Shown here one piece after another: positions 6,688 through 59,250 of a stretch of DNA of 64,000 bases (the first letter of the stretch is position 1; the number at the start of each line of letters is the position of its first letter). The stretch spans positions 5,623 to 69,622 of the forward strand of contig BDTO01000080.1 of assembly GCA_002897855.1 (NCBI GenBank). The letters run 5' to 3'. The position numbers and the translations under genes are program-made. The stretch comes from a bacterium BMS3Bbin05 (GTDB lineage Bacteria > Nitrospirota > Thermodesulfovibrionia > Thermodesulfovibrionales > BMS3Bbin05). The notes below the pieces were generated by a model. It saw only the letters and a program-made list of their open reading frames with translations. It was not told the DNA's origin and made no database searches.

Positions 6688-7908
6688 TTACTCCTTTTCC
6701 AGTTCAAAGGCATTATGCAGAACCCTGACAGCCAGTTCAGTATACTTCGAGTCTATAACACATGATATCTTTATCTCGGACGTGGATATCATCATTATAT
6801 TGATACCGCTGTCCGAGAGTGTCTGGAAAGTCTTTGCGGCAACGCCCGAGTGGGTCCTCATACCGACGCCCACAATGGATATCTTTGCAATGTTTTTATC
6901 CGTTGAAATGCCGGCCGCATTCAGTTCCCTTGCGACTTTTTCCACAATATCCCTTGTTTTTGCCGTATCTGTTTCGGGCACTGTAAATGATATATCCGCC
7001 AGCTTTTCGTCACTGCTTATGTTCTGAACAATCATGTCCACAACAATACCGGCTTCAGCAATGTTCCTGAACAGGGCTGCTGCTATTCCGGGCCTGTCCG
7101 GGACCCCCATGATAGTGAACTTTGTCTGGTTCTTATCATATGCAATTCCAGAAACTGCTACTTTTTCCATCTCTTTATCCTCCCTGGTAACAACCGTTCC
7201 CGGGTTACTGGAAAAGCTTGATTTCACAACCACCCGGACATCGTATTTTTTTGCGAATTCGACCGACCTCGCCTGTAATACCTTTGCCCCAAGACTGGCA
7301 AGTTCAAGCATTTCTTCATAAGATATCATATCAAGTTTCCGTGCTTCCGAAACAATATCCGGGTCTGTAGTAAAAACACCTTCCACATCAGTATATATCT
7401 CGCAGAGATCGGCATGTAAAGCAGCGGCGACCGCTACGGCTGTCAGGTCGGAACCGCCCCGTCCAAGTGTCGTTACATCCGAATTTTCCGTTATGCCCTG
7501 GAACCCGCAGATTACCGGCACAATACCATTGTCTATGGCCTGTTTTACCCTGTCTGCGGTTACCTTTTCTATCTTTGCCTCTGTATGTGAAGTGTCGGTA
7601 ATGATCCCGACCTGCCTGCCGGTAAAAGACATGGCCTTAATTCCCTGTTCATTCAGAGCCATGGCGGTCAGCGCTGCGCTGATCCTTTCACCGGACGACA
7701 GAAGCATATCCATTTCCCTCTCATGAGGATTTGATGACAGTTCATGGGCGAGTGATATCAGTCTGTCGGTCTCACCGCCCATTGCCGAAACCACGAGAAC
7801 GACCATATTCCCCTTTCTAAAGGTTTCGGCTGTATGTTCGGCAACTGCCCTGATCCTTTCAGCGCTTCCTACGGAAGTTCCGCCATATTTCTGAACGATT
7901 AAAACCAC
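6688..7908 (-). CDS. lysC: aspartate kinase with C-terminal ACT domains
   Basis: 406 aa. [10 protein letters not shown].. N-terminus, the [13 protein letters not shown] motif, and two ACT-like repeats. Confidence 0.92.
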
Positions 7909-8422: not shown

Positions 8423-9640
8423 TTATTGTTGTCCGTATATAAAGAAATCCATCAGCTTATGAGCTTTTTCAAAGGTAATTACATTTTCGGCCCCGCATAT
8501 GATTTCATTGTATCCGTCGAACCCGGATTGACCGGATTTCCCGCTGTCATAGATAATGAACGGGACAAAGTCATCCGTATGAGTTCTCAGGGATATCGGC
8601 GTTGCATGGTCCGGCATAATGAGGACCCTGAATCTGCCGAATCTTTCCTCTACTTTTCTTAAAAGAGGTCCTATTACCCGGGAATCGATATCCTCAATGG
8701 CCCTGATCTTATCTTCTACGTTGCCGTTATGCCCCGCTTCGTCGGGCGCCTCGATATGAAGATAGACAAAATCACCGTCTCCGAGGGATTCGAGGGCGGC
8801 ATCGGACTTCCCGCTGTAATTGGTATCAATATAGCCCGTCGCTCCGGGTACATTTATGATTTTAAATCCGGCATAAACGCCGAGCCCTTTGGTCAGGTCT
8901 ACAGCACTTATCAGCGCTCCGGAGAGTCCGTACCTGTCCCTGAATGGGGGCATCGAGGGTTTTTTCCCCTGCCCCCATAGCCATATGCAATTTCCGGGAT
9001 TCCTGCCGGATTTAATGCGCCTTTTATTAATATCATGTCCCCTCAGGACCTCCAGTGATTCCTTCATGAGCCTGAGCAGCACCTCTTTCCCGTTTCCATT
9101 CGGGAGGTATTTACCTATTTCCTTACCAGTGATATCATGGGGAGGGGTACAATCAACATTCTCGATGCCATCCTGCCAGACCATCAGATGACGGTAACCT
9201 GTCCCAGAGTAAAAACTGATATTTTCATTTCCAAGTTCTTCATCGACTGTCCTTATGAGTTCGCCCGCTTCTTTACTTGTAATGTGGCCTGCGCTGTAAT
9301 CCGCCATGATGAATCTGTCCCAGTCGCCGTCTTCTTTAATGGTTACGATATTGCATCTGTATGCCACATCATTGTCAAGCAGTTCAACACCCATGCTTGC
9401 CGCTTCGAGCGGCGCCCGCCCTGAATAATATTGAGCAGGGTCATACCCCAGGATACAGAGATTGGCAACATCCGAGCCGGGCTGAAACCCGTCGGGAATG
9501 GTCTTCACTTTTCCGGCAAGGCCGTTTTTTGCAAGGGCATCCATGTTAGGTGTATAAGCCTTCTGCAAAGGCGTAAGACCGCCCAACTCCTCCAATGGCC
9601 TGTCGGCCATACCGTCGCCTATGATAACAATATATTTCAT
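8423..9640 (-). CDS. cofactor-independent phosphoglycerate mutase family protein (ApgM-like; the subfamily proposed to be a non-orthologous homoserine kinase)
   Basis: 405 aa. IIGDGMADRP..LGG.TPLQ.A.TPNMD and GSDVANL.ILGYDP motifs, plus HIEAPDEAGH and PDHATP metal-site motifs of the alkaline-phosphatase superfamily. Confidence 0.85.
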   Translation of the reverse strand: MKYIVIIGDGMADRPLEELGGLTPLQKAYTPNMDALAKNGLAGKVKTIPDGFQPGSDVANLCILGYDPAQYYSGRAPLEAASMGVELLDNDVAYRCNIVTIKEDGDWDRFIMADYSAGHITSKEAGELIRTVDEELGNENISFYSGTGYRHLMVWQDGIENVDCTPPHDITGKEIGKYLPNGNGKEVLLRLMKESLEVLRGHDINKRRIKSGRNPGNCIWLWGQGKKPSMPPFRDRYGLSGALISAVDLTKGLGVYAGFKIINVPGATGYIDTNYSGKSDAALESLGDGDFVYLHIEAPDEAGHNGNVEDKIRAIEDIDSRVIGPLLRKVEERFGRFRVLIMPDHATPISLRTHTDDFVPFIIYDSGKSGQSGFDGYNEIICGAENVITFEKAHKLMDFFIYGQQ

Positions 9641-9758: not shown

Positions 9759-11273
9759 TCAGATTCTTCCATGCATTTTCGTTATCCTGAAAAGCCTTTC
9801 GGCGGAAGAAGAAGTCAATTGCCGTGGATGGAGTTTCCACTCCCAATTGCCTCGTGCGCTTGAGGGATGGTTCATTCTTGCATCTTCATCGAGACCAAGG
9901 ATGTCCTGCATCGGGAAAATGGCCGTCCGCGCCGCAGATTTCATTGCGAGTTTGATCAGTTCCCGGTTAATTGTTCCGGCCGATACTTTACGGCCGATAT
10001 AGTTTTCGATCCTCTTTTTCTCTTCTGACCGAGCCTCTTTTTTGAACCAGCCGACTGCCGTATTATTGTCGTGTGTGCCGGTATAAACGATACAGTTTTC
10101 CGGATAGTTATGGGGAAGGTATGGATGGCCGGGATCGTCGTCGCCGAAGGCAAAGAGAAGAAGTTTCATCCCGGGAAATCCGAAGTGATTCATTACTTCT
10201 CTTACGTCGGGTGTTATCACTCCCAGGTCTTCGGCGATTATGTGAAGACCGGGCAATCTGCGCATTGCCTCCGTAAAAAAATCCATTGCCGGCGCATTGA
10301 CCCATTTGCCGTTCATGGCATTTTTTTCTCCGGATCTTACTTCCCAGAATGCAACAAATCCCCTGAAGTGGTCGATCCGGGTTATATCGAAGAGCCGCAT
10401 GTTATATCCCAGCCGGTCAATCCACCACGAATAATGCTTTTTCTTCAGCGCATCCCAGTTATATACAGGATTTCCCCAGAGTTGGCCGGTTTTGCTGAAG
10501 TAATCAGGCGGGACACCGGATACAAAGGTCATTTTTCTTTTTTCATCAAGCTTGAATATGCGGGGATGAGACCATACATCGGAACTGTCATAGTTGACAT
10601 AAATGGGTAAATCACCGATTATCCGAATATTATGTTCCCTGCAGTAATTTCGCACCCTGGCCCATTGAGTAAAAAAAAGGAACTGAAAGAAGGATTCTCT
10701 TAAAACTGTATCTTCAAGCTTGTTCTTCCATTTTTCAAGTTCACCCTGATCCCTGTACCGGAGGCTCTTTGGCCACCTGCTCCATATCCTGTTGCCGAAG
10801 TGTTTCTTGAGAGCTATAAAGAGGGTATAATTTTCAAGCCAGAATGAATTGTCTTCAAGAAAATGCTGAAACTCCGCTAAAGAACCGATTCTGTGCCTGC
10901 AACGGGTAAATGCAGTGAAAAGAATATCTTTTTTGAACCTGCAAACTTTGTCGTATTGAACCCTCTTCGTGGGGAAAGGCGGCATCGAGCGGAGATCGGA
11001 TTTCAATAAATAACCGTCCTGTACAAGTATCTCCGGACTTATGAGAAATGGGTTTCCGGCAAATGCCGAGTAACTGCTATAGGGGGAGTTTCCATAAGCA
11101 GGACTGGTCGGGTTTAGCGGAAGAATCTGCCAAATGCCCTGCCCGGACTTTACAAGGAAGTCAACGAACCTGTACGCAGATGGTCCAAGGTCTCCGATGC
11201 CGTATTTTGACGGGAGGGATGATATATGAAGAAGAATTCCGCTTTCCCTTTTCCATGCTTCTCGATGCCTCAT
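9759..11273 (-). CDS. malQ: 4-alpha-glucanotransferase (amylomaltase)
   Basis: 504 aa. [21 protein letters not shown]-terminus, plus IIGDLPIYV and TGTHDN motifs of GH77. Confidence 0.9.
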
Positions 11274-13258
11274 TGCGAAATTGTGGTTTCACAGCGCGGC
11301 ACATTTTTGAAAAAGACTGCTCCGAGAGGGGGCAGAGTGATAATGATTGAGTTTTCCCTTCCCTGATACGCTGCGGGCTCCGCCGATACTCCTCCGAAGT
11401 TTCCATGTCCGCTTCCCGAATAATCAGCTGCATCGCTGTTCAGCAGTTCCTTCCAGTATCCGCCACGGGGCACTCCGACACGGTAACGGTATCTCGGTAC
11501 AGGTGAAAAGTTACATACGACCAGTACAATGTCATCCGTGCTTCTTCCCCTTCGGAGAAAACTGATAATATTCTGTTCCCAGTCATGAAAGTCTATCCAC
11601 TCAAAACCCGTTTTCCTGAAATCCAGTTCATGCATTGCGGGTTCATCTCTGTAAAGATGATTCAGGTCACTTACCCATCTCTGGACACCTTTATGGAAGG
11701 GATATTCAAGGATGTTCCATTCGATGCTTTCATCATGTGACCACTCCTTCCACTGTGCCAGTTCCCCTCCCATGAAGATGAGCTTCTTGCCGGGATGTGC
11801 ATACATGTATCCGAAAAGCAGTCTCAGGTTTGCGTATTTCTGCCACTCGTCACCCGGCATCTTGCCGAAGAGAGAACCCTTCCCATGTACCACTTCATCA
11901 TGAGAAAGAGGTAAAACAAAGTTTTCGGAGAAGGCATACCATATGCTGAATGTAAGCTGATTATGGCGGTATTTTCTGAATACCGGTTCTGTTGACATGT
12001 AATCCAGTGTGTCATGCATCCATCCCATGTTCCATTTCATACCGAAACCGAGACCGCCGGCATAAACCGGCCGCGAAACCATTGGCCATGCCGTTGATTC
12101 CTCCGCAATGGTCTGGACATCCGGAAAGTTTTCATATACTGCTGTATTAAACCTTTTTAAAAGGGATATAGCCTCTATATTTTCTCTGCCCCCGTATTGA
12201 TTTGGTATCCATTCACCATTCTGTCTCCCGTAGTCGAGATAGAGCATCGATGCTACTGCATCTACCCGCAGGCCGTCGATATGGTATTTCTCAAACCAGA
12301 AAAGGGCATTGCTGATGAGAAAATTCCTTACTTCATTTCTTCCGTAGTTGAAGATATAGCTCTTCCAGTCGGGGTGAAAACCCTTGCGTGGGTCTGCGTG
12401 TTCGTAAAGATGCGTTCCGTCGAAATAGGACAGACCGTGCTCATCCGTCGGAAAGTGTGACGGAACCCAGTCAAGTATTACGCCGATACCGTTCTGATGA
12501 AGGCAGTCGACAAGATACATGAAATCCTGTGGTGTTCCGTACCTGCTCGTAGGCGCAAAATAGCCGGTTATCTGGTAACCCCAGGAGACGAAAAACGGAT
12601 GTTCCATTATGGGCATAAGCTCGACATGGGTGAATCCCATTTCATTTACATATTCCGCAAGCTCACGCGCCATCTCGCGGTATGAAAGAGACCTGTTCCC
12701 CTGCCCGGGGTTGCGTCTCCATGAGCCGGGGTGCACTTCATAAATCGAGAATGGAGCATTCAGGTCGTTGAGTTCGTGACGTTTTTCCATCCAATCTCCG
12801 TCTCCCCATGCATACTGCAGATCCCATATGATAGAACCCGTTCTGGGCGGGGTTTCGGAATGAAATGCATACGGGTCCGCCTTGTTTACACGGTATCCGT
12901 CATAGCGGGAGATGATGTGGTATTTATATATAGCTCCCTTATCCATGCCCGGGATGAAAAGCTCCCATATGCCGGAGCTATCCTCACGGACTTTCATCTT
13001 GTTGGAATCCGGGTTCCATCCGTTGAAATCACCGATAACAGACACCTTCTCTGCGTTTGGCGCCCAAACCGAGAAATATACACCGCAGGCGCCATCTTGC
13101 TCCATGATATGTGAGCCCATTTTGTCATAGAGGCGATAGTGGCTCCCTTCCCTGAAGAGGTAGATATCCTCATCCGTAAAGAGGGGTTTGTCCCCTGAAT
13201 TTGCAGTTGCTCCGGAATTGATGCTCATGTGGTGTCCTCCATCAGTATAGTAAAACAT
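11270..13258 (-). CDS. glgB: 1,4-alpha-glucan branching enzyme
   Basis: 662 aa with GH13 motifs ([41 protein letters not shown]). 4-nt overlap with malQ. The start may be the internal ATG 30 nt downstream. Confidence 0.93.
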
Positions 13259-13326: not shown

Positions 13327-14421
13327 TTATAGGCGTTTCTTTATTATCTCTTCAACATCTCTTAGTTTGGAACTGATACTGATTGGTTTATTAACTACAC
13401 TGAATACAGTATCGGGATCTTTCAGACCGTGACCGGTAAGGGTGCAGACAGCGGTTTGCCCTTTTTTGAAGTATCCTTTCCTGTTAAGTTTCAGGAGACC
13501 GGCAACGGGTGCAGCTGATGCAGGCTCGCAAAAAATACCCTCTGATGAAGCGATAAGCCTGTAGGCCGACAGTATCTCATCATCCGTAACGGATTCTATA
13601 AGCCCCCCTGACTCGTCCCTGGCCGCCAATGCTGCCTTCCAGCTTGCCGGGTTACCAATACGAATGGCAGTCGCCACTGTTTCCGGCCTCTCGACAGGAT
13701 GCCCCTTTACTATTGGTGATGCCCCTTCCGCCTGGAACCCTAACATTATCGGAAGAGCTGATATAATTCCTGCATCTTTATATTCCCTGTATCCTCTCCA
13801 GCAGGCGGTTATGTTCCCCGCATTGCCCACCGGCAGTAGATGGAAGTCCGGTGCATTTCCAAGCTGGTCGCATATTTCAAATGCCGCGGTTTTCTGTCCC
13901 TCGATCCTGAATGGATTAATGGAGTTGACAAGGGTCATGGGATAGAGTTCTACAAGCTTCCTGACAAGGGAAAGGGCGGTATCGAAGTTGCCGGAGACCT
14001 GGAATACGACCGAGTCATGAATAAGCGCCTGGGACAGTTTACCGAGCGCTATCTTCCCTTCCGGTATAATGACAAAGGCCTTGATGCCGGCACGGGCCGC
14101 ATAAGCGGCGGCGGCGGCAGACGTATTACCCGTTGAAGCACAGATAACAGCCTTTGCCCTTTCCTCCATGGCCTTTGAGATTGCCATGCTCATTCCCCTG
14201 TCCTTGAATGAGCCGGTGGGGTTAAGCCCTTCAAATTTGAACCAGACATCGATATCAAGACCGGCATTCTTCACGAGATTCCGTGCCCTGATAAGAGGCG
14301 TATTTCCCTCATGTAGAGTAACTACCGGAGTACTATCAGTAACGGGGAGAAATTCTCTGTACCTGTTGATTACCCCCGTCCAGACTGAACGAGGCATGGT
14401 TTTCTGGTCTTCTAAAGACAT
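13327..14421 (-). CDS. thrC: threonine synthase (short type)
   Basis: 364 aa with the PLP-lysine motif NPTGSFKDRGM and a GN.G glycine-rich loop. Confidence 0.9.
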   Translation of the reverse strand: MSLEDQKTMPRSVWTGVINRYREFLPVTDSTPVVTLHEGNTPLIRARNLVKNAGLDIDVWFKFEGLNPTGSFKDRGMSMAISKAMEERAKAVICASTGNTSAAAAAYAARAGIKAFVIIPEGKIALGKLSQALIHDSVVFQVSGNFDTALSLVRKLVELYPMTLVNSINPFRIEGQKTAAFEICDQLGNAPDFHLLPVGNAGNITACWRGYREYKDAGIISALPIMLGFQAEGASPIVKGHPVERPETVATAIRIGNPASWKAALAARDESGGLIESVTDDEILSAYRLIASSEGIFCEPASAAPVAGLLKLNRKGYFKKGQTAVCTLTGHGLKDPDTVFSVVNKPISISSKLRDVEEIIKKRL

Positions 14422-14509
14422 ATTCCCCCCGGATGGGATTTCTTCGCTGCAGCAGTCCTATGTGGAATCAAGGAGTCCATGAATTATTTAATAGCAGACA
14501 TTTTGCCTG

Positions 14510-14746
14510 CTATTCTACAATATCTCCTTCTATTAATTCGACTGAAATTCCCTGTTCGGTAAGAGACTGAATACCCTTTTCAAGATTCTCTTCAGTACCC
14601 TCCAGTTCGAGGATAAGCTCACCGACCGATTCAGTAACCCTTGCTCTCCTGATGTTAGGCATTACATCATATTTCTTTGCCATTGTGAAGACTACGGGTT
14701 CCTTTATCAGTTCCGGTGGAAAAGTAAGTTTGACCCTTCTTGTCAT
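14510..14746 (-). CDS. stand-alone NIL-domain protein (MetN C-terminal-like ferredoxin-fold domain)
   Basis: 78 aa. The pattern P.V..... VNIL/NIRRA....G.L.LEL.G.EE.L..... matches the NIL domain known from methionine ABC ATPases and NIL-ferredoxin proteins. Confidence 0.6.
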   Translation of the reverse strand: MTRRVKLTFPPELIKEPVVFTMAKKYDVMPNIRRARVTESVGELILELEGTEENLEKGIQSLTEQGISVELIEGDIVE

Positions 14747-14757
14747 AGTTCCCCCTC

Positions 14758-15039
14758 TTATTGAGATATCCCGCCTGCTATAGCGGGCACGATTGACAAT
14801 TCGTCACCATCCTTAACCACAGTCGCTTCCGCCTGGAGAAACCTGATATCCTCTTCATTTACATACATGTTGACGAAACGCCTTATCTTGTTATTCTCTG
14901 AGATTCTCTCTGCAATCCCGGGATACTGCTTATCAAGGTCGTTTACAATTTCGATGACAGTACCCGTTTTTGCTTCAACTTCTTCTTTGCCCCCCGTCAG
15001 CCTCTGGAGTGGGGTTGGAATCCTGACTTTTACCGGCAT
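14758..15039 (-). CDS. MoaD/ThiS-family sulfur-carrier protein with a C-terminal extension after the Gly-Gly
   Basis: 93 aa with a beta-grasp-size profile. The C-terminus is ..SIVPAIAGGISQ, i.e. the GG is followed by 3 extra residues. Confidence 0.75.
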   Translation of the reverse strand: MPVKVRIPTPLQRLTGGKEEVEAKTGTVIEIVNDLDKQYPGIAERISENNKIRRFVNMYVNEEDIRFLQAEATVVKDGDELSIVPAIAGGISQ

Positions 15040-15065
15040 TTTTTACCCCCTTTTATGGTTTTTCC

Positions 15066-16298
15066 TTATTTTATTTTTTTAAGGACCTTTTCGAAGGCCT
15101 CAAGATTAGGGTTAATATGATGAGGCTCGCCCATGTGGCCATGGAGTGCCTCCTGGGTCTTCAGACCGTTTCCCGTTATGCATATAACTGTTGTCTCATT
15201 TCTGTCTATATGGCCGCTCTCTATCAGTTTTTTGGTTGCGGCTACAGTAACGCCTCCTGCTGTCTCTGCAAATATGCCTTCCGTTTTTGCGAGCAGCTTC
15301 ATTCCGTCTATAATTTCTTCGTCAGTGACATCCTCACCATATCCTCCCGTATCCTTTACACACTTGTATGCGTAATATCCGTCTGCTGGATTTCCTATGG
15401 CAAGTGATTTTGCAACGGTATCGGGTTTCACAGGTACTATTATATCCGTATCGTTTTTAATAGCTGTTGCTATGGGATTGCACCCTTTTGCCTGTGCGGC
15501 GAATACCTTTGTATCGAGCTTTTTTATAATACCTATTTCCCTGAATTCCTTGAAACTTTTCCATATTTTCGTAAGCAGCGATCCGCTGGCGCATGGTACA
15601 ACGACATTATCAGGCGCTCTCCACCCCAGTTGCTCAACTATCTCAAATCCATGTGTCTTTGAACCCTCGGCGTAGAAGGGCCTGATATTAATATTAACGA
15701 ATGCCCAGTTGTACTTGTTTGCGATCTCGCTGCAGAGTCTGTTTACGTCGTCGTAATTACCATCAACTGCCACGAGATTCGGCCCATATACCAGTGATGC
15801 GGCGATCTTGCTGGCCTCAAGTGAAGCGGGTATGAATATGAACCTGTTGAATCCTGCCTTTGCCCCGAGTGCCGATACGGAATGGGCCAGATTTCCCGTT
15901 GATGCACATGCTACTGTATCAAACCCGAATTCCTTTGCCTTGGTAAGAGCTACCGATACGACCCTGTCTTTGAAAGAAAGGGTAGGGTGTGCAACGGTAT
16001 CGTCTTTTACATAAAGTTCTTTTATGCCAAGCTCTCCGGCAAGGTTGTCTGCCTTTATAAGCGGTGTAAAGCCGGAAGTAAGGCCAACCTGCGGGTTACC
16101 GTCGACAGGTAAGAGTTCCCTGTATCTCCAGAGGTTTTTTTCTCTTTTCTCTATCTTTTTTCTTGTAAGGGCTTTTTTTATCTTTGGATAGTCGTAAGCC
16201 ACTTCGAGAGGGCCGAAACAGAATTCGCATACGTATATGGGTTCAACAGCGTATTCACGGCCGCATTCACGGCATTTCAGACCTTTTATGAAACCCAT
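15066..16298 (-). CDS. threonine-synthase-like PLP enzyme with an N-terminal 4-Cys zinc ribbon
   Basis: 410 aa. N-terminal CRECG..(x14)..CEFC, PLP lysine motif PTLSFKDRVVS, and fold-type II PLP enzyme features. It is a paralog of the thrC 650 bp downstream. Confidence 0.8.
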   Translation of the reverse strand: MGFIKGLKCRECGREYAVEPIYVCEFCFGPLEVAYDYPKIKKALTRKKIEKREKNLWRYRELLPVDGNPQVGLTSGFTPLIKADNLAGELGIKELYVKDDTVAHPTLSFKDRVVSVALTKAKEFGFDTVACASTGNLAHSVSALGAKAGFNRFIFIPASLEASKIAASLVYGPNLVAVDGNYDDVNRLCSEIANKYNWAFVNINIRPFYAEGSKTHGFEIVEQLGWRAPDNVVVPCASGSLLTKIWKSFKEFREIGIIKKLDTKVFAAQAKGCNPIATAIKNDTDIIVPVKPDTVAKSLAIGNPADGYYAYKCVKDTGGYGEDVTDEEIIDGMKLLAKTEGIFAETAGGVTVAATKKLIESGHIDRNETTVICITGNGLKTQEALHGHMGEPHHINPNLEAFEKVLKKIK

Positions 16299-16366
16299 TA
16301 TCTGCCTCCTCTCAAAAAAATGAAATCAATTAGGAATTAGTATTTTAATAAAAAGCAGGGATATTT

Positions 16367-16768
16367 TTAAAGGGGTTTAACAGAAATTTCAACGATTTCG
16401 CCTTCGTTGATGGAAAATGCCTTCAACACAGGTATATCACCGGCAAGACTTACGATGATATATAAAGAATCAGGATAATAGGCAAGCCGTACATCTTTTG
16501 CCGATGGGAATGCCACGGAATCAGGGTGGGAATGATATATGGCGAGCATTTTCTCCTTCCTTTCCCTTATGTCTTTCATTACCTGAAATTGTTCCCCGGG
16601 GTCCATGAAATAGCTTACCCGTGAGTTTTCGGTATTTGTCATATTATATAAATGTGCAGAAGAGAATTCCTTTCCGGCAACAATCCCGCAGACCTCGTCC
16701 GGGTAACCGGCCTTTGCATGATCTATTATTTCATTAATGACGCTTCGGGGGATTCCAATCGTTTCCAT
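16367..16768 (-). CDS. JAMM/MPN+ metalloprotease (Mec/HcyD/QbsD-like)
   Basis: 133 aa. EVCG (catalytic Glu) plus HSHPDSVAFPSAKD, which matches HxHx7Sx2D exactly. Confidence 0.85.
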   Translation of the reverse strand: METIGIPRSVINEIIDHAKAGYPDEVCGIVAGKEFSSAHLYNMTNTENSRVSYFMDPGEQFQVMKDIRERKEKMLAIYHSHPDSVAFPSAKDVRLAYYPDSLYIIVSLAGDIPVLKAFSINEGEIVEISVKPL

Positions 16769-16858
16769 GTTCTATTCGTGAAAGACTTATTACTGACCCG
16801 GATAATCCATAAACCATCTCCGCCGTCCGCATGGCATTTAATTCATGAATAATATGGG

Positions 16859-18088
16859 TTAAAAGGCAACAGCCGGGCTGCAGGTCTGTTGTGAAAAAAG
16901 ATTGTTCAACATTAGATCGATTGCTTCACGGATTGTCGGTATGTATGTTTCTCCTTTTTTTGAGTAAATCCCGTCATTTCTTATTTCATCCAGTCTGGAA
17001 CCGGTGAATAGAAGGCCGTCTTTGAGACCGCGACGTGTTTTCGACAGCCAGTGAGCAATGCAAAACGGTGTTTTTCTGTTCATAAAGCCACAATTCTTTA
17101 TGCCTATGCAGGAAACACACCTTTTCCTCGTCTCGACCACGACTTTTGCCGCTGCCTTTAAGAATCCGTTATCAATATATCTTGACGGCATCCCGGCTGG
17201 ACTGGTCATCGTGGTAATGACCGGATACATGGGGTTCAGGTAAAATTCTTTGATTATTTCGTCGGACATGCCCGATTCCCGGGTCAGAAGCATTCTCGTT
17301 CCGCATGATACACCATTAAAACCCTGCTCCAAAGCCTTTTCGATATCCTCCCTGTACATAATGCCGCCTGCCAGGATTATCGGGATATCCGGATCAAGTT
17401 CCCTGAGACCGTTATAAAGTTCAATGGGTCTGAATTCGCTGTGATCATTTGCCTCCTCTGCATTTCCTGCGCCTAAATGCCCTCCAGCGAATTGAGGCAA
17501 TTCTACGTACCAGGCGTCCGGCTTGCGCCCCTTTCTAATCTGGGCCCTTTTTAGCATTATCCTGGCAGCCCTTACTGAAGAGATGATAGGTGCATAACGC
17601 ATATGAGGGTATCTTAGCATTTCGACCGGTAAATCCGTAGGAAGACCCGCGCCGACAAACAGGATATCAACGGATTTACTTTCGCCGATCACTTTGACCA
17701 GGATTTCGTAATTATTCACCGCTCTCATTAAATTAATACCTAAAATTCCGTATTGAGAATCTTGGCGCACTTTCCGGATCTTCCCGGAAAGTGCTGCCTT
17801 ATCTGTTTCAATAATTAATTTCTTTCTCTCCTCCATAGGCATGTTTTCAAGTTTTTCCTCGAATATATCATTGTACCCGACCAAAGAAGCAGCCAAAACT
17901 CCTATTCCACCCGCACTTATAACAGCGCCGGCCAGATCTTCATTGGAAAAATCGATTCCCATTCCCCCGTTCATTATCGGAAAGAGTATCTTGCGGGAAA
18001 AAACCGCTTCAAGATAATCGTTTTTCTCTTTTTCGGAAGAAAAAACCGGAGCAAGCAGGCTCTGTTCTTTAAGAATGGATTTTACCAT
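16859..18088 (-). CDS. nitronate monooxygenase / FabK-like FMN-dependent TIM-barrel oxidoreductase with a C-terminal Cys cluster
   Basis: 409 aa. PIMNGGMG, AGGIGVLA, FAGGHLG and ILAGGI motifs of the NMO family, plus an extra CVSCIGIKNC..(x9)..C segment. Confidence 0.7.
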   Translation of the reverse strand: MVKSILKEQSLLAPVFSSEKEKNDYLEAVFSRKILFPIMNGGMGIDFSNEDLAGAVISAGGIGVLAASLVGYNDIFEEKLENMPMEERKKLIIETDKAALSGKIRKVRQDSQYGILGINLMRAVNNYEILVKVIGESKSVDILFVGAGLPTDLPVEMLRYPHMRYAPIISSVRAARIMLKRAQIRKGRKPDAWYVELPQFAGGHLGAGNAEEANDHSEFRPIELYNGLRELDPDIPIILAGGIMYREDIEKALEQGFNGVSCGTRMLLTRESGMSDEIIKEFYLNPMYPVITTMTSPAGMPSRYIDNGFLKAAAKVVVETRKRCVSCIGIKNCGFMNRKTPFCIAHWLSKTRRGLKDGLLFTGSRLDEIRNDGIYSKKGETYIPTIREAIDLMLNNLFSQQTCSPAVAF

Positions 18089-18952: not shown

Positions 18953-20599
18953 TTACTGTTTTGTTCCGAGTCCGCCCACGACGAGAGTGAAATATTTTCC
19001 GCCTGCAATATCATTGACCGAGGAAACATTCCATATTCTCACTGGTGAAGATTTGGCAGGCTGATCTTTCAGGTCCTTTCCCCAAATCCATATTGTTCCA
19101 TCTTTCATGAGTGCCATGGAATGATACATGCCGGCGGCAACTTTTCTGATGTTTCCTACGCCACCAACCTCGGAGGGGAGGGAGCCGGCATCATCTTTCC
19201 TGCCAAGCTGGCTGTATTTATTGCCGCCCCATGCCCATACATGTCCGTCTTTCTTCAGCGCAAGGCTGTGATTGAGCCCGGCGGCTATATCAATAATTCC
19301 GGAAAGTTTTTTAACCTTTACGGGTATAAGCCTGTTTACGTTTGTACCGTCACCAAGCAGTCCATTGATGTTCCATCCCCATGCCCGGACAGTTCCGTCT
19401 GAAGCCAGTGCCAAAGTATAATGAAGCCCTGCAGCGACATTTATTATTTTCGGAAGTCCGGTTACGATGACAGGTTCGGTTCTGGTTTTCGTAGTATTGT
19501 CGCCGATCTGGCCGAAAAGGTTCCATCCCCAGGTCCAGACAGTTCCATCGGAGCGTACTGCTGCACTATGATATGTACCGGCGGCAATAGCGGTTATGTT
19601 GGACAATCCTTTAACCTTTACGGGTATATTGCTGTCCCGTATGGAGCCATTCCCCAGCTGGCCGTAAGAATTTCTTCCCCATGCCCAGACAGTACCATCT
19701 GCGCGCAGGGCAAGTGTATGGTACTTGCCTGCCGCAACGTCGGTAACCTTGTAAAGTTCCTTGACCAGTACAGGGATGTGACTGTCCTCCAATGTGCCGT
19801 TACCCAGTTGACCCATGTTGTTTCTGCCCCATGCCCATACGGAACCATCAGACTTGATTGCAACAGAATAGTCCATTCCGGAAGCAACTTTTATGACATC
19901 TTCCATGCCGCCTATCGGCAGAAGTCCATCCCTGCTATTTGTAGTTCCATCACCAAGCTGGCCGTATTCATTAAGGCCCTCTGTCATTATGGCGCCTGCA
20001 ACCGCTTTCTGGGGCATCCAGCTTGAACGTACGGGCCAGAGAAATTTGTAACTGCAGGCCGACATATAATCTATGGTCATTTCGCCGGAAGACATATCAA
20101 GTATCCACACATAATCAATTATATCCCTGCCTGTAGATGACGACCAGTAGAAATGGTTTTGGATATCCACAAACGGATTATTCACCGGAAGAGCAGGATA
20201 GAATTTTGTCCTATCCACCAGTGATTGCAATTCATTGATGGCAGGCATTCGCCAGTCCGTGTACCCGAAATTCGGTCTTTTGCCATAGTTCATTTCACGG
20301 ATATAAAGTTTTGCTCCCTCCCATGTTATGGGAAGTTTACGAATATCGGCATCTTTAAGCCATACAAGACCGGTATCGCTGTCTGTGACGGTTCCATCAC
20401 CGTTATCTGCAAAACGGCCTGCCTGGAATATCGAGGAAACATTACGAGAAGGAACGTTTTCTTTCCCTGCTGTCCTCTTGAGAGATTTAACTTTTCTGTG
20501 CGGGGAAGATGCCGGCCTTTTACTGACAGATGAAGCCTCTGCTGAAAAACCTTGTGAGAAAGAGAAAACGATCACTAATATAAAACAGATAATGCGCAT
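18953..20599 (-). CDS. secreted protein: DUF1566 (Lcl C-terminal-like) domain + seven RCC1-type beta-propeller repeats
   Basis: 548 aa with a signal peptide (MRIICFILVIVFSFSQGFSAEA). DNGDGTVTDSDTGLVWLKDA...WRMPAINELQSL is DUF1566-like. This is followed by repeated W(A/T)WG.N.(Y/F)GQLG(D/N)G blades. Confidence 0.8.
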   Translation of the reverse strand: MRIICFILVIVFSFSQGFSAEASSVSKRPASSPHRKVKSLKRTAGKENVPSRNVSSIFQAGRFADNGDGTVTDSDTGLVWLKDADIRKLPITWEGAKLYIREMNYGKRPNFGYTDWRMPAINELQSLVDRTKFYPALPVNNPFVDIQNHFYWSSSTGRDIIDYVWILDMSSGEMTIDYMSACSYKFLWPVRSSWMPQKAVAGAIMTEGLNEYGQLGDGTTNSRDGLLPIGGMEDVIKVASGMDYSVAIKSDGSVWAWGRNNMGQLGNGTLEDSHIPVLVKELYKVTDVAAGKYHTLALRADGTVWAWGRNSYGQLGNGSIRDSNIPVKVKGLSNITAIAAGTYHSAAVRSDGTVWTWGWNLFGQIGDNTTKTRTEPVIVTGLPKIINVAAGLHYTLALASDGTVRAWGWNINGLLGDGTNVNRLIPVKVKKLSGIIDIAAGLNHSLALKKDGHVWAWGGNKYSQLGRKDDAGSLPSEVGGVGNIRKVAAGMYHSMALMKDGTIWIWGKDLKDQPAKSSPVRIWNVSSVNDIAGGKYFTLVVGGLGTKQ

Positions 20600-20847
20600 G
20601 GTACCCTTTTTTTACATTAATTATGTATTTGTGAGCATTTTGCCTGTCAAAAAATAAAGTTAAGAGAACTTTCTATTTTAATTTAATGATAATATCGATA
20701 TCAAGCACTTATACTAAAAAATTTGAGATTATCTTTACAATTGTTTTATATAACTTTATAATATAACAATTTGTAAGATTTGTGAAATACCGAAATATCT
20801 CGGGTAGTTCTATCTATTATGAGAAAAATAAATTACAGGGAGTTCCT

Positions 20848-22278
20848 ATGTCTGCAAAAATGAGAATGATGCCGGTTTTGACGTTCCTTTTACTGTTGGC
20901 AGGAGTTGCGACTGTATTGGCCGCTGACTTCAATGAGGATTTTGCGTTTAAGATATCCCTCGAGAACCATCTCGAGAGAAGACTTAAACAGATGATTACA
21001 GAGATTACAGGCAATGACAGGGGCGTGGTTATAGTTAACGCAGACATAGGTTCGGTCAGGAGTGGTGATTTAAGCAGGGGCCGTATAACAAAAAAGAAAA
21101 GCCGGGACGCCCTTATTCTTCCGGGAGTGCCTGTAAAAAAGCAATTTGGGACGGGTTTGTCGGAAACAGCCGAGCTTCTCTTCCCTGGAGCAGGGGGGAG
21201 TAAATATAAGGTTAATAAAATAGTGCTTGCGATCTGGCTGGACAGGGGTATTTCGGAACCCGTGGTTGCACTTGTCCGGGACCTTGCAAAGCAGGTCATA
21301 GGGTTCAACGAGAAAAGAGGGGACAAAGTGAACATCCAGTTGATTGATTTTAAGAGAAATAAATTCTACTGGAAATCGGTATTCTATCCTGAAAACCTTT
21401 ACCTTATAATTCTGGGATTAATAGCAGCCATATTTCTTTTGACAGCTTCATTGTTTCTCAGGGACCCGTTCAGCAAGCTTTCCAGCGCTCTCAATAACAT
21501 TGATTGGGATCATCTGAGGGGTACTTCCGGTACTGGAGAGATGTTGAGAGCCGGTTCGGAGATGCAAAACTCCACGTTGGCGCATGAGCCGTCTGAGGAA
21601 TTGGAGCAGGTGAAGGCCGGGGAATCCCCGCCTTTTTCCTTTGTCAGTGAAAAAGACCTGCCCAGCCTCCTGTTCCTGTTAAAGAACATGCCTGCTGAAG
21701 ATATAGCTACCGTGGCGAACTACCTTGATGCAGCCCTGGCAACCAGACTGCTTGAATCTTTCTCTCCTGAAATTCAGTCCGGGATAGCGATATACCTGAG
21801 TAGTGAAAAGATCGACCCCGAAAAGGTCCGCAGTCTTGAAAACACGTTGAAGGAGCAGATCAGTTATGTAATCGGAGGGGAAAGAAAACTCGTATCTATT
21901 CTTCGCATGGCCAGTGAAGAAGTAAAAGACAGGGCCATAGGTGTTCTCGAGAAAAGGGACAGGGATAGTGCAGAAAATCTGAAAAAGAAAGTAAAAGGAT
22001 TTGAAGAGACGATCAGGGACCTGCCTTCGCAGGGAATACAGGTTATTTACCGGAGGACAAACCCTGTGCTGTTTGCCCAGATTCTGAAAGCTTCATCAGA
22101 AGATGTCAGAAAGAAGGTGATGGATTCGATTAGCGAAGGGGCAGCGGAAAGGCTTAAACAGGAAATAGAGCTTAGCCCCCCTCTTTTACCAAGGAGGCTG
22201 CAGAGGGAGAAAGTTAACCTGATGATTATGGTTAATCGTTTTATAGACGAAGGAATAATAGAAGGAGTCAACGGCTGA
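20848..22278 (+). CDS. bitopic/biTM protein fusing a FliF/SctJ-type periplasmic ring-building motif to FliG-like middle and C-terminal (torque) domains
   Basis: The track ORF starts at GTG 20782; the ATG at 20848 with an AGGGAG SD is preferred (476 aa). Order of segments: signal/anchor helix; RBM-like LENHLERRLKQMITEITGNDRGVVIVNADIG...KIVLAIWLDRGISEPVVALVRDLAKQVIGFNEKRGDKVNIQLIDF; TM helix LYLIILGLIAAIFLLTASLFL; then FliG_M-like (NMPAEDIATVANYLDAALATRLLESFSPEIQ) and FliG_C-like (GFEETIRDLPSQGIQVIYRRT..FAQILKASSEDVRKKVMDSISEGAAERLKQEIE...FIDEGII) segments. The domain calls are by eye. Confidence 0.65.
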   Translation: MSAKMRMMPVLTFLLLLAGVATVLAADFNEDFAFKISLENHLERRLKQMITEITGNDRGVVIVNADIGSVRSGDLSRGRITKKKSRDALILPGVPVKKQFGTGLSETAELLFPGAGGSKYKVNKIVLAIWLDRGISEPVVALVRDLAKQVIGFNEKRGDKVNIQLIDFKRNKFYWKSVFYPENLYLIILGLIAAIFLLTASLFLRDPFSKLSSALNNIDWDHLRGTSGTGEMLRAGSEMQNSTLAHEPSEELEQVKAGESPPFSFVSEKDLPSLLFLLKNMPAEDIATVANYLDAALATRLLESFSPEIQSGIAIYLSSEKIDPEKVRSLENTLKEQISYVIGGERKLVSILRMASEEVKDRAIGVLEKRDRDSAENLKKKVKGFEETIRDLPSQGIQVIYRRTNPVLFAQILKASSEDVRKKVMDSISEGAAERLKQEIELSPPLLPRRLQREKVNLMIMVNRFIDEGIIEGVNG

Positions 22279-22280
22279 TT

Positions 22281-23057
22281 ATGGATTTTATGACGCTTAT
22301 AGGTTTGCTGCTCGGGGGGTTAACTGTATATTTCGTTATGGTGTCAGGCCACATCCTTCACATGCTGTTTAATCCGATTGCTGCACTGCTCGTTTTTGGG
22401 GGAACATTCAGTGCTACCCTGATTGCCTATCCATGGGATCTCATTAAACAGACGGTTCCATCTTTCAGGCTCATGTTTTTCCCTAAAAAAAATACTTATG
22501 GACACCTGGGGAACCTTGTGGAAATACTCACATCACTCTCTGAAAAAGCCCGCAGGCAAAGTATCGAGAGTCTCCAGAGTGATCTCGGCAGGATAGATGA
22601 CAGGTTCTTTTCTCACAGTATGCAGATGGTAATCGACGGTCTTGAGACTGACGTGGTAAAGGAGAACATGCAGAGAGAGATTCTCTATTCAAGGCAGAGT
22701 TTCCAGAAAGTCTGCGGTGTTTTCAGAACTATGGCTACACTTGCTCCGATTTTTGGTCTGCTGGGCACACTGATAGGTGTTGTTGAAGTCCTCCGGAACC
22801 TTTCAGACCCTGCAACAATGGGAAGCGGTATGGCGATTGCCATAACAACGACATTTTATGGTATCTTTGCGGCCAACTTTTTGTTTCTTCCCATTGCCAT
22901 CAAGCTCAACGAACACAGCGAAAGAGATGTATTGATCAAGGAACTGATTGCTGAAGGGATTAGTGCAATTCAGGGTGGAGACCTGCCTCTGATTGTCAGG
23001 AAAAAACTCAATGCATTTCTCTCGTCCAATATAAAGGAAAAAAACGAAGGCAGGTAA
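22281..23057 (+). CDS. motA: MotA/PomA-type stator channel subunit
   Basis: 258 aa with a 4-TM layout. Conserved TM3-TM4 core LAPIFGLLGTLIGVVEVL...GMAIAITTTFYGIFAANFLFLPIAIKL. Starts 2 nt after the upstream stop. Confidence 0.85.
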   Translation: MDFMTLIGLLLGGLTVYFVMVSGHILHMLFNPIAALLVFGGTFSATLIAYPWDLIKQTVPSFRLMFFPKKNTYGHLGNLVEILTSLSEKARRQSIESLQSDLGRIDDRFFSHSMQMVIDGLETDVVKENMQREILYSRQSFQKVCGVFRTMATLAPIFGLLGTLIGVVEVLRNLSDPATMGSGMAIAITTTFYGIFAANFLFLPIAIKLNEHSERDVLIKELIAEGISAIQGGDLPLIVRKKLNAFLSSNIKEKNEGR

Positions 23058-23059
23058 AA

Positions 23060-23740
23060 ATGATAAAACGTTTTTTTCTTCTCAGAAACAGAAGGGAAAC
23101 AAGTCCTCTCTGGCTCATCATATTCTCCGACATGACAACCAATCTCATGCTTTTTTTTCTGATACTCTTTGCAATGACCAGGATGACAGCGACCGGCAAG
23201 GAATTGATGATTGAAGGAATGGGAAATGCAGTCAGTGACGAATTGAGGCAGGTCCAGCTTAAGGGTGAAAAGCTTCTCAAACAGATTAAGGACGAAGAAG
23301 CTATAAATAACCTGAGAAATGTGCTTATGCATGGAAAACTGGCCGGCTATACGAAGATGACGGTTGATGAAGACAGGGTAAATATAACACTTAATCCGCC
23401 GCACTTTTTTGCGACCGGCAGTGCCGAGCTGAACCCGGATATTCTAACCGAGCTCGAAAGCCTTGTTGATCCGCTGAAGAGATTTCCCAATGATATAGTA
23501 ATAGAGGGGCATACGGACAATGTTCCGGTAGCCAGCGGTAAATACCGGTCAAACTGGGAACTTTCGATAGCGCGTGCCGTAAGTGTCATAAATTTTTTAA
23601 CGGAAAAAGGATTAAACCCAAAGCAACTCATAACAGCGGGCTATGGCAAATATCACCCTGCATATCCCAATGATACCGAAGAACACCGTGCGCGTAACCG
23701 CCGGATAGAAATTACAATAATAAGGAAACAGAGGTTGTAG
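23060..23740 (+). CDS. motB: MotB-type stator subunit (TM with conserved Asp + OmpA-like peptidoglycan-binding domain)
   Basis: 226 aa. The PLWLIIFSDMTTNLMLFFLILF TM helix carries the MotB Asp. The OmpA-like C-terminus reads GHTDNVP...SNWELSIARA...GYG...P...NRRIEITI. Confidence 0.85.
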   Translation: MIKRFFLLRNRRETSPLWLIIFSDMTTNLMLFFLILFAMTRMTATGKELMIEGMGNAVSDELRQVQLKGEKLLKQIKDEEAINNLRNVLMHGKLAGYTKMTVDEDRVNITLNPPHFFATGSAELNPDILTELESLVDPLKRFPNDIVIEGHTDNVPVASGKYRSNWELSIARAVSVINFLTEKGLNPKQLITAGYGKYHPAYPNDTEEHRARNRRIEITIIRKQRL

Positions 23741-23745
23741 AGACG

Positions 23746-24396
23746 GTGGACTCCATTCAGAAAATGATTTCAAACCTGAAAGACAACGAAGTGGATAGTT
23801 CGCTTTGGATGGTTCCATATAGCACACTTATGCTGATTTTGATGATATTATTTGCAGTTCTCTATGGTATGTCATACATGCAATCAGTTGAATATGAGTC
23901 TGCCATTTCAGAGCTTGACACGGCAAATCCGGGACTGAAAAAGGAGATAATACTGGCCAAGGCCATGCAGAAATATATTGAAGATCATAATTTGACCGGT
24001 CAGGCCGAGGTAAGGGTATCGGCCCGGTTCATAAAAATGGATCTCAAGAGCCCTGCACTGTTTGAAACCGGGAGAGCCAAACTGAAACCGGCCATACTGC
24101 CCCTCTTTGAAGAACTGGCTAAGAACCTGCAGAGGGTGGATAACCGTGTTATTGTGGAAGGCCACACGGACGATGTCCCTATACATAACAGACACTATAA
24201 TTCCAATTGGGAACTTTCGGCAGCCAGGGCGTTCAATGTAATATATTTCCTTATAAAAAGAAATATTGATCCTGCACGTCTGATTGCCCTCGGCTTCGGC
24301 GAATACAGGCCGGCATTCCCGAACAACACCGAAGAAAACCGTGCAAAGAATCGCAGAATAGATATCACGATCATCCGGGAAGGTAAAACTGCATGA
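23746..24396 (+). CDS. MotB paralog lacking the conserved channel Asp (OmpA-like C-terminal domain intact)
   Basis: 216 aa with a GTG start. The TM helix LWMVPYSTLMLILMILFAVLY aligns to WLIIFSDMTTNLMLFF of the upstream paralog with Thr in place of Asp. The OmpA-like region reads GHTDDVP..SNWELSAARA..GFG..RP..NRRIDITI. Confidence 0.75.
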   Translation: MDSIQKMISNLKDNEVDSSLWMVPYSTLMLILMILFAVLYGMSYMQSVEYESAISELDTANPGLKKEIILAKAMQKYIEDHNLTGQAEVRVSARFIKMDLKSPALFETGRAKLKPAILPLFEELAKNLQRVDNRVIVEGHTDDVPIHNRHYNSNWELSAARAFNVIYFLIKRNIDPARLIALGFGEYRPAFPNNTEENRAKNRRIDITIIREGKTA

Positions 24397-27204: not shown

Positions 27205-27289
27205 AAAGGATGAGATTATCTACTTGGCAGAATTGACTTAATAAAAGGTTTTTTTTAAAATTTAACATCTTATCAGGGAGGTATATATT

Positions 27290-28054: not shown

Positions 28055-28105
28055 ATTCAGCTGATAAGGTCTGATATCTTTTGTTGATCTGAAAGTGAGA
28101 TCACA

Positions 28106-30143: not shown

Positions 30144-30424
30144 TACTCTTTTTCCTTTCTAACCACTATAATCCATTCCCTGTCATTGATCTTTTCAACT
30201 TTTAGTACCTTCTGGCCGTGGTCCTGCATGGATTTTGGAATATTTTCTGTCGCATCTTTGTAGTCAAGCAAAATCTCGAGCACCTGCCCGAGTTCCAAAC
30301 TTTCTATTGCAAGTTTCGATCTTACAAAAGTGTATGGGCAGACGAGTCCCCTGATATCGACTTTTTTGTCCGGTTTGATCTGTTCCATTAAGCCTCCCCC
30401 GAAATTTGAAGAAGAGTCACTCAT
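30143..30424 (-). CDS. TusA/SirA-like sulfurtransferase
   Basis: 93 aa. DIRGLVCPYTFVRSKLAIESLELGQVLEILLD fits the TusA D.RG..CP.P......L..G..L pattern (CPYT in place of CPxP). 1-nt overlap with the E1 gene. Confidence 0.7.
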   Translation of the reverse strand: MSDSSSNFGGGLMEQIKPDKKVDIRGLVCPYTFVRSKLAIESLELGQVLEILLDYKDATENIPKSMQDHGQKVLKVEKINDREWIIVVRKEKE

Positions 30425-57625: not shown

Positions 57626-57635
57626 AGTATAGCTT

Positions 57636-59241
<1,606 letters not shown>

Positions 59242-59250
59242 GGTGTTGAA

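Follow-up and report, generated by a model that had tools for sequence, protein, structure and literature searches.

The locus described here lies in a stretch of 64,000 nucleotides from the bacterium BMS3Bbin05 (Nitrospirota, Thermodesulfovibrionia; contig BDTO01000080.1 of GenBank assembly GCA_002897855.1, positions 5,623 to 69,622 of the forward strand), which is referred to below as the window. Six genes on its minus strand encode, in 5' to 3' order, an NMO-family flavoprotein, a JAMM/JAB metalloprotease, a 410-aa paralog of threonine synthase (ThrC) that we call MetM-like after the Streptomyces enzyme MetM, a small sulfur carrier of the ThiS/MoaD fold, a stand-alone NIL-domain protein and a canonical ThrC (Table 1). 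A sequence-only reading of this DNA had proposed that the group is a protein-thiocarboxylate module for the synthesis of homocysteine from O-phosphohomoserine (OPH). When the open reading frames (ORFs) of the window were searched with Pfam and NCBIfam models, the coordinates, the gene order, the domains and the quoted motifs of all six genes were borne out. The comparisons presented below support the proposed function for five of the six genes, the NMO flavoprotein being the exception.

Table 1 Genes of the module and of its aspartate-family context in the window
Feature	Position	Strand	Size, model matches and remarks
NMO-family flavoprotein	16859-18088	minus	409 aa; PF03060 E 2.6e-31
JAMM/JAB metalloprotease (Mec/HcyD-like)	16367-16768	minus	133 aa; Prok-JAB E 2.3e-25
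MetM-like homocysteine synthase candidate (ThrC paralog)	15066-16298	minus	410 aa; PALP E 5e-69; TIGR00260 303 bits
MetO/CysO-like sulfur carrier (ThiS/MoaD fold)	14758-15039	minus	93 aa; PF02597 E 3.8e-17
Stand-alone NIL-domain protein	14510-14746	minus	78 aa; PF09383 E 8.5e-18
Canonical threonine synthase thrC	13327-14421	minus	364 aa; TIGR00260 329 bits vs cutoff 167
HomK (iPGM-like homoserine phosphotransferase)	8423-9640	minus	TIGR02535 549.6 bits vs curated cutoff 446.3
ThiF/MoeB-type E1 adenylyltransferase	29337-30143	minus	PF00899 E 1.9e-87
TusA-like sulfurtransferase	30143-30424	minus	DIRGLVCP motif; weak YedF/TsuB-type matches
Homoserine dehydrogenase (hom)	30494-31795	minus	NF004976 559 bits
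Aspartate kinase (lysC)	6688-7908	minus	NF005155 610 bits
malQ (4-alpha-glucanotransferase) and glgB (branching enzyme)	9759-11273 and 11270-13258	minus	between thrC and HomK

The same reading had listed lysC, hom, an alternative homoserine kinase and thrC in the window, and according to the scores of the hidden Markov models (HMMs) these genes are indeed present, HomK exceeding its curated cutoff; the HomK family was validated as such in GapMind 2026. Overlooked, on the other hand, were the E1 and TusA-like genes beside hom, about 12 kb from the module. The end of the TusA-like ORF overlaps the start codon of the E1 gene, i.e. the two are translationally coupled, and the Pfam TusA domain is called on the ortholog of the TusA-like gene in Dissulfurispira thermophila. 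In this cultured prototroph the genes are contiguous in the order aminotransferase-hom-TusA-ThiF-JAB-MetM-ThiS-NIL-thrC-HomK...lysC-cimA, the block headed by hom (hom-TusA-ThiF) running on into the module, and the MetM-like protein is 82% identical to the 410-aa protein of the window. The gene set in the window is broken up by an 11-kb insertion (cytochromes, MotAB, FliG-like genes, RCC1 and NMO) and by glgB-malQ. The latter insertion is a lineage-specific break in the aspartate-family super-operon; thrC and HomK are adjacent in D. thermophila and in most relatives. A promoter and terminator scan of the cluster gave no difference from shuffled sequence, and Dissulfurispira is not mentioned in the GapMind 2026 supplements.

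The 410-aa ThrC paralog and its subfamily

The 410-aa protein is a ThrC-homologous, fold-type II pyridoxal phosphate (PLP) enzyme with the PLP-lysine motif SFKDR and E values of about 1e-60 to solved ThrCs. The PALP and TIGR00260 matches and inspection of the sequence confirmed its earlier description as a ThrC paralog with a CxxC..CxxC ribbon; this N-terminal zinc ribbon reads C9xxC12...C24xxC27 and carries the Pfam label 'NinF'. With the window's own thrC product, encoded 650 bp away, the protein shares 37% identity, and it passes the generic thrC model TIGR00260 (303 bits at a cutoff of 167).

An alignment that took in solved ThrCs and representatives from 1.8 billion proteins revealed the motifs PTLSFKDRV, ASTGNLA, VNINIRPFYAEGSKT, PCASGSL, AKSLAIGNPADG and ITGNGLKT for the MetM-like subfamily, canonical ThrC having ASTGNTS, NS-xNPxRxEGQKT, GNAGN and TGHGLKD at matching positions. 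Specifically, the 410-aa protein has ASTGNL where canonical ThrC has ASTGNT, its VNINIRPFYAEGSKT replaces VN-SxNPxRxEGQKT with the Arg shifted by three positions (RPFYAEG), and PCASGSL replaces PVGNAGN of the PLP-phosphate loop. None of the three canonical loops (ASTGNT, NSxNPxRxEGQKT, GNAGN) is found in the 410-aa protein, whereas the co-resident 364-aa ThrC has all three. The motifs and the four-Cys ribbon are invariant across the MetM-like subfamily, high-GC actinobacterial proteins included, among them P0125 from Micromonosporaceae, which is 54% identical to the 410-aa protein and falls in the same clade.

In a neighbour-joining tree the MetM-like proteins formed one clade, distinct both from canonical ThrC and from a further ThrC-like group with a zinc ribbon, and the 410-aa protein shares this clade with an Actinoplanes protein under control of an S-adenosylmethionine (SAM) riboswitch (see below). 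The phylogenetic check proposed earlier thus came out in favour of a clade separate from canonical ThrC, together with actinobacterial proteins, in a tree that does not contain the MetM of Streptomyces albulus. By its motifs and its place in the tree, the 410-aa protein is a member of a sharply defined subfamily with remodelled substrate and PLP loops. From Thermus ThrC structures, we take the replaced positions to include residues that position phosphate and water; their loss would fit an abolished hydration at C-beta. Compared with canonical ThrC (Thermus thermophilus 1UIM, Aquifex 2ZSJ), the fold, the SFKDR lysine motif and the presumed substrate OPH are the same; the paralog differs in the added zinc ribbon, in RPFYAEGSKT for NPxRxEGQKT, ASTGNL for ASTGNT and ASGSL for GNAGN, and in its clade. 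The PDB yielded no MetM structure, the matches being canonical ThrCs only. In databases MetM-like proteins are annotated everywhere as 'threonine synthase', a frequent misannotation of MetM against which GapMind 2026 warns.

The other zinc-ribbon ThrC-like subfamily (P0190, P0211, P0212, P0224, P0237, P0247, P0248), which stands apart from both ThrC and the MetM-like clade, has the motifs ASTGNAA, RNTGxNPYTREGKKT, VPVGDGNIIS and ADSISVxxPRDG.

Gene neighbourhoods and SAM riboswitches in relatives

When species-representative genomes were scanned for the pattern RP[YFW]Y[AV]EG[SA]K of the subfamily, MetM-like genes turned up in at least 600 species-level genomes. Synteny was studied in the best 80 of these at least 600 loci, whose proteins are 58-82% identical to that of the window; they span about 15 phyla, including Nitrospirota (Nitrospira too), Verrucomicrobiota, Planctomycetota, Zetaproteobacteria, Chloroflexi and Aquificota. 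Seventy-two loci, in which the sequence continues for 1.5 kb or more downstream, were informative. In 60 of them a ThiS carrier gene stands directly downstream of the MetM-like gene, as it does in the window at a distance of 26 bp. Genes for ThiF, JAB and TusA were found within 5 kb in 24, 19 and 11 of the 72 loci, respectively.

A second PALP-family gene neighbours the module in 30 of the 72 loci. A reading of all of these as thrC was rejected: the tree placed most of them in a separate deep clade, and re-scoring resolved them into 23 CysK/CysM cysteine synthases and seven true thrC genes, the latter all in Thermodesulfovibrionia. The aspartate-family context, which had been read as a pointer to homocysteine and methionine, is real with respect to the genes present, but the embedding among thrC, HomK, hom and lysC is restricted to Thermodesulfovibrionia. 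Outside the lineage of the window, the CysK/CysM neighbours suggest that one carrier system is apparently common to cysteine and homocysteine synthesis, and loci of this kind resemble the mec-cysO-cysM cluster of Mycobacterium tuberculosis. In Nitrospira/Nitrospirales (L036, L048, L053, L056, L057, L064, L070, L083) the gene order is CysK/M-ThiF-MetM-like-ThiS-NIL-second ThiF-JAB, and the two E1 genes together with a cysteine synthase likewise suggest a single carrier system for both amino acids.

Using Rfam models, a SAM-I riboswitch of 72.7 bits was detected in Actinoplanes derwentensis, ending 10 nt before the start codon of the MetM-like gene. Of 33 further loci at species level, 17 likewise have a SAM-I riboswitch (68-93 bits) immediately ahead of the MetM-like gene and on its strand, giving 18 of the 34 loci examined. 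These 17 loci belong to Verrucomicrobiota, Kiritimatiellae, Zetaproteobacteria, Chloroflexi and Elusimicrobia, and in one of them, L031, the riboswitch precedes an operon with a ThiS-NIL fusion. These riboswitches tie the operon to methionine. Because they are not universal in the family (Microcystis has none at its homolog; PMC12172450), we regard them as supportive rather than defining.

MetM-subfamily genes 63-64% identical to the window protein were also seen in an Aquifex aeolicus metagenome-assembled genome (MAG; L029, 2317-3543) and in Aquificaceae (L035, 148-1365). No carrier gene is adjacent in either of these two short contigs. Aquifex aeolicus has been listed as lacking a known pathway to homocysteine (Price et al. 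2018), a gap that the MetM-subfamily gene may fill.

Carrier, NIL protein, processing enzymes and neighbouring genes

The carrier of the window ends in ...PAIAGGISQ, i.e. in a pro-form AGG-ISQ. Its best solved relatives are CysO-type proteins (4n6e_B, 88 bits; M. tuberculosis CysO 3dwg_C, 77 bits), whereas MoaD reached 37 bits and the moaD model TIGR01682 only 21 bits at a cutoff of 66. An identity as MoaD, which the sequence-only reading had named as an outcome that would speak against it, was rejected on these scores and on the synteny with MetM-like genes; moaE was sought in the 64-kb window, and none was found there. The residues after Gly-Gly differ even among close relatives (ISQ, K, GKN, SC, RGI, CFL and others), and 34 carriers end exactly at GG. 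Such freely varying tails have the look of a discarded pro-peptide.

In ten loci ThiS and NIL are joined in a single ORF, which comprises a full ThiS HMM match (...AIAGG), a linker of 4-25 aa and a full NIL domain (Planctomycetia, Thermodesulfobacteriota, Sumerlaeota, Omnitrophota and others). Two further loci, L014 (11217-12332; Elusimicrobiota MAG) and L028 (11235-12299; Actinomycetota MAG), have ThiS as an N-terminal fusion partner of ThiF, with NIL encoded by a gene of its own downstream. Since a thiocarboxylate carrier needs a free Gly-Gly, both types of fusion would have to be cleaved. The variable tails and the existence of these natural fusions are in agreement with the earlier claim that the GG-ISQ tail calls for processing.

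The JAMM protease of the window reads HSHPDSVAFPSAKD, which is the exact HxHx7Sx2D motif claimed for it, with an upstream Glu in 'PDEVCG'. JAB genes were present in all nine ThiS-NIL fusion loci with adequate flank, as compared to 3 of 29 loci with a GG-ending carrier (Fisher p ~1e-6, phylogeny not corrected for). By analogy to the systems discussed below, we propose that JAB would both cut off the tail of the carrier and set homocysteine free from its adduct with the carrier. The protease had also been considered new context, which it is not, since the published pathway itself includes Mec (JAMM) among its steps.

A NIL domain follows the carrier in 53 of the 72 loci, as a separate gene in 43 and fused to the carrier C-terminus in 10. 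The NIL gene of the window has its own Shine-Dalgarno sequence, AGGGGG, and in relatives NIL genes lie inside SAM-riboswitch-controlled operons. The NIL proteins of the module share no conserved Cys and have an invariant NiR.A.V motif; that of the window aligns with the MetN C2 domains 2qsw and 3dhx, the Asn of the 'NI' motif being conserved. In MetN, the C2/NIL domain binds methionine for trans-inhibition via this Asn. The frequency of NIL, its co-transcription behind SAM riboswitches and its fusion to the carrier ('Rosetta stone') mark it as a conserved component, and on these genomic grounds we consider it a genuine third component of the MetM/MetO-type system.

The same PF09383 domain is found in the MetN importer ATPase and in the NIL-ferredoxin protein of the DUF39 pathway (MA1822/DvMF_0262), which is genetically required for homocysteine synthesis (PMC5764234). 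Unlike these, the NIL of the module has neither an ATPase nor a ferredoxin domain; it is either a protein of its own (78 aa) or an extension at the C-terminus of the sulfur carrier, in a pathway that proceeds through homoserine. The literature search found no report linking NIL to MetM/MetO or ThiS/JAB operons, only work on DUF39/NIL-ferredoxin, the primary MetM/MetO paper lying outside that search. A 2006 survey of Ubl/JAB/E1 genes mentions cysteine synthase operons and neither ThrC-like genes nor NIL. As new context, then, the NIL gene stands in so far as no report was found, and it is conserved well beyond the window. Tentatively, NIL might be a methionine/homocysteine-sensing switch that acts on carrier maturation or on MetM activity at the OPH branch, with the ThiS-NIL pro-protein cut by JAMM, and that replaces the riboswitch where this is lacking; we consider this reading possible but less likely than not.

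The E1 of the window has 268 aa and consists of a ThiF domain only, with no rhodanese. It belongs to the MoeB subfamily PRK05690 (315 bits at a cutoff of 266), E. coli MoeB (1jw9) is its best match among solved structures, and the MoeZ model aligns to it only over the first 273 of 392 positions. An E1 gene stands directly beside JAB and MetM in D. thermophila, L012 and L013. As the E1 has no rhodanese domain, the TusA-like protein would be the most likely persulfide donor. The relay may differ in a sister lineage that shares the NMO-JAB-MetM arrangement (L087). There, a 256-aa rhodanese (508-1278) and a CxxCxxCC protein (1410-1838) are encoded 4-5 kb upstream of NMO, and neither ThiF nor TusA was found within the 5.5 kb upstream of NMO, where the contig ends.

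The NMO flavoprotein had been counted as a module member on account of an extra Cys cluster. The cluster is real (C324-x2-C327-x5-C333-x9-C343), but it is conserved throughout the NMO subfamily, including cyanobacterial flavin oxidoreductases, and is nothing special to the module. In none of the 72 species-level loci was an NMO gene found within 5 kb of the MetM-like gene; it is kept beside JAB only in the window species and in one sister lineage, there with an upstream flank unlike that of the window. The few close homologs all come from Thermodesulfovibrionales, a 46%-identical homolog has an unrelated gene context, and a metagenome scan with the NMO protein returned no relatives. NMO was considered as a reductase of the sulfur relay and was rejected as a core part on account of its absence from the 72 loci and of the family-wide Cys cluster. 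From its distribution NMO is probably a lineage-specific neighbour outside the module, and a functional link is unlikely.

Other neighbours were noted in passing. Between NMO and the FliG-like cluster, a 548-aa secreted protein with an Lcl C-terminal domain and multiple RCC1 repeats is encoded at 18953-20599 (minus strand); RCC1 repeats are unusual in bacteria. On the plus strand (20782-25694) the gene for a FliG-like protein (FliG_M + FliG_C, 498 aa) precedes those for MotA, two MotB/OmpA-like proteins and a TPR protein, and three multihaem c7-type cytochromes come next at 25747-28864. No other flagellar genes accompany the FliG-like/MotA/MotB set in the window, and it could be a module of stator type that has nothing to do with flagella. 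A PyrR-binding-site RNA (RF00515, 58.9 bits) lies at 57629-57738 (plus strand), upstream of pyrB, pyrC and carA (58303-61721).

Proposed route, alternatives and relation to known systems

Taken together, the genes most likely encode a MetM/MetO-type route, in which OPH would be converted to homocysteine via a protein thiocarboxylate, branching from threonine synthesis. The earlier proposal of homocysteine formation from OPH by a carrier and a ThrC-like enzyme gains support from the clade shared with actinobacterial proteins, from the SAM-I riboswitches and from the adjoining carrier genes. We infer each chemical step, the sulfur donor and the part played by NIL from these data. LysC, Hom and HomK would make OPH, the logical substrate in view of the adjoining HomK and thrC genes, and canonical ThrC would turn part of it into threonine. 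The carrier would be translated as the GG-ISQ pro-form, from which JAMM removes the tail to expose Gly-Gly; the ThiF/MoeB-type E1 would then adenylate the terminal glycine, and a persulfide, most likely from the TusA-like protein, would convert the adenylated carrier to the thiocarboxylate. The 410-aa paralog would bind OPH on PLP and eliminate phosphate, whereupon the carrier thiocarboxylate would attack C-gamma in place of the addition of water at C-beta. By analogy to CysO/Mec+ and HcyS/HcyD, the resulting carrier-homocysteine adduct would be resolved by an S-to-N acyl shift and JAMM hydrolysis, and homocysteine would be released for methylation to methionine. In such a scheme ThrC and the MetM-like enzyme would compete for one OPH pool, with NIL possibly acting as a regulatory or adaptor subunit at this branch point.

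Several points weigh against this route. For the lineage of the window the case is built on genes, with the chemistry deduced from them, and the evidence for orthology to S. albulus MetM is indirect, by way of actinobacterial relatives under riboswitch control. The window operon itself has no SAM riboswitch according to Rfam, even at E<=1. The absence of the alternative genes metA/X and metB/Y/Z and of the DUF39 route is a result for the 64-kb window, in which they were sought. In the window, 12 kb separate E1 and TusA from the module, and the two could also serve molybdenum cofactor (Moco) synthesis or tRNA thiolation. The weakest step is the role of NIL, for which a methionine/homocysteine-binding regulatory or adaptor subunit is our best guess and remains conjecture. 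Finally, a MetM-type enzyme was assayed in vitro with sulfide (Na2S) (PMC12172450), so that in a sulfide-rich organism the carrier may not be strictly needed.

This assay also speaks for the view that the 410-aa enzyme makes homocysteine from OPH with free sulfide, the carrier, E1 and JAMM being dispensable or serving other thiocarboxylate consumers (cysteine synthase, Moco, tRNA thiolation). The sulfidic lineage of the organism, the distance of E1 and TusA from the module and the existence of MetM-like genes with no adjacent carrier (Actinoplanes L003, Aquifex L029, L035, Poribacteria) would agree with it as well. The carrier gene, however, follows immediately downstream in most of the informative loci, inside the SAM-riboswitch-controlled transcription unit, and MetO, Mec and MoeZ are required steps in GapMind 2026, so that a purely sulfide-dependent reaction seems improbable.

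Still less probable is a different substrate, i.e. O-phosphoserine or another phosphorylated or acylated amino acid, which would make the paralog a counterpart, with the ThrC fold, of CysM/CysO or cysteate synthase, and cysteine or another thiol the product. Enzymes of the ThrC fold are able to use O-phosphoserine, the 410-aa protein has a weak match to the cysteate synthase model (69 bits), the carrier is most similar to CysO, and a cysteine synthase adjoins the module in 23 of the 72 loci. Yet those very clusters have a CysK/M of their own, beside which another cysteine synthase would be superfluous, the SAM riboswitches speak for methionine as against cysteine, the module is embedded among hom, HomK, thrC and lysC in this lineage, and the characterised family member makes homocysteine from OPH (GapMind 2026). 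A second threonine synthase isozyme with ThiS, JAB and NIL as unrelated neighbours (MoaD or SAMP-like conjugation) would explain the TIGR00260 score of 303 bits and the annotation as threonine synthase in every database; the carrier and JAB also match the SAMP1 and desampylase models weakly, the latter with 84 bits for JAB, both below the cutoffs. This explanation is largely refuted and has very little probability left: the substrate loops are remodelled, the clade is separate, the window already has a canonical thrC at a distance of 650 bp, the carrier scores favour CysO-type proteins over MoaD, and in the best 80 of at least 600 loci the synteny with the carrier extends across about 15 phyla, with SAM riboswitches upstream.

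The sequence-only reading had pointed to a report of a MetM/MetO pair in Streptomyces, and the report in question exists (Hasebe et al. 2024, AEM 90:e01247-24, cited in GapMind 2026 and PMC12172450). As relayed by GapMind 2026, MetM (a ThrC homolog), the carrier MetO, the JAMM hydrolase Mec and the E1 MoeZ convert OPH to homocysteine in S. albulus, and the route is described for 'some Streptomyces'. The S. albulus metM gene has a SAM riboswitch upstream, and homologs occur in cyanobacteria (PMC12172450). The window module resembles this published description, the likeness being drawn from the text and not from a comparison of sequences, in the ThrC-homologous PLP enzyme with adjoining ThiS/CysO-like carrier, in JAMM and E1 and in the link to methionine through the SAM riboswitches of relatives. 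It differs in the stand-alone NIL behind the carrier (fused in other phyla), of which no mention was found for Streptomyces in the portion of the published description relayed by these sources. Furthermore, the window E1 lacks the rhodanese of MoeZ and is paired with TusA, the operon has no riboswitch, and the lineage, of the phylum Nitrospirota, places the genes in an aspartate-family super-operon.

In the M. tuberculosis CysO/CysM/Mec+/MoeZ system, a thiocarboxylate attacks a PLP-bound intermediate formed from an O-phospho amino acid, and the JAMM enzyme hydrolyses the carrier-amino acid adduct. The type of chemistry, the CysO-type relatives of the window carrier and the CysK/M genes in 23 of the 72 loci connect the two systems; the window PLP enzyme differs in its ThrC fold, in homocysteine instead of cysteine as its presumed product and in a gamma- instead of a beta-replacement. 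For Wolinella succinogenes, Krishnamoorthy and Begley reportedly described in 2011 a system of HcyS, HcyD, HcyF and MetY, in which HcyD is said to remove the residues after the carrier GG and homocysteine is the product. The residues after GG, JAMM, the activation by E1 and the product are thus shared, whereas MetY is a fold type I O-acetylhomoserine sulfhydrylase acting on acylated homoserine and the window enzyme is a ThrC-like protein of fold type II, predicted to use phosphorylated homoserine.

The core system has been known since 2024 and is not categorically new. The features that set the present variant apart are the conservation of NIL as a partner, in some loci fused to the carrier, the pairing of TusA with an E1 that has no rhodanese domain, the super-operon with aspartate-family genes, and a distribution that is very wide and hidden by misannotation. 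Homocysteine synthesis is a stubborn gap in genome-based metabolic reconstruction, and at least 600 genomes at species level would encode a MetM/MetO-type route whose MetM-like gene is labelled 'threonine synthase' throughout. NIL, which is present in most versions of the route, is absent from the published description as far as GapMind 2026 relays it. The ThiS-NIL and ThiS-ThiF fusions would represent a bacterial example of a ubiquitin-like pro-protein in need of JAMM processing. With the MetM/MetO-type route added to the MetN importer and the DUF39/NIL-ferredoxin pathway, the number of separate methionine systems in which NIL is found rises to three, which offers a testable handle on the function of the domain. 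An OPH branch point is otherwise known from plants, and its presence here would prompt one to ask how the flux through OPH is apportioned to threonine and methionine.

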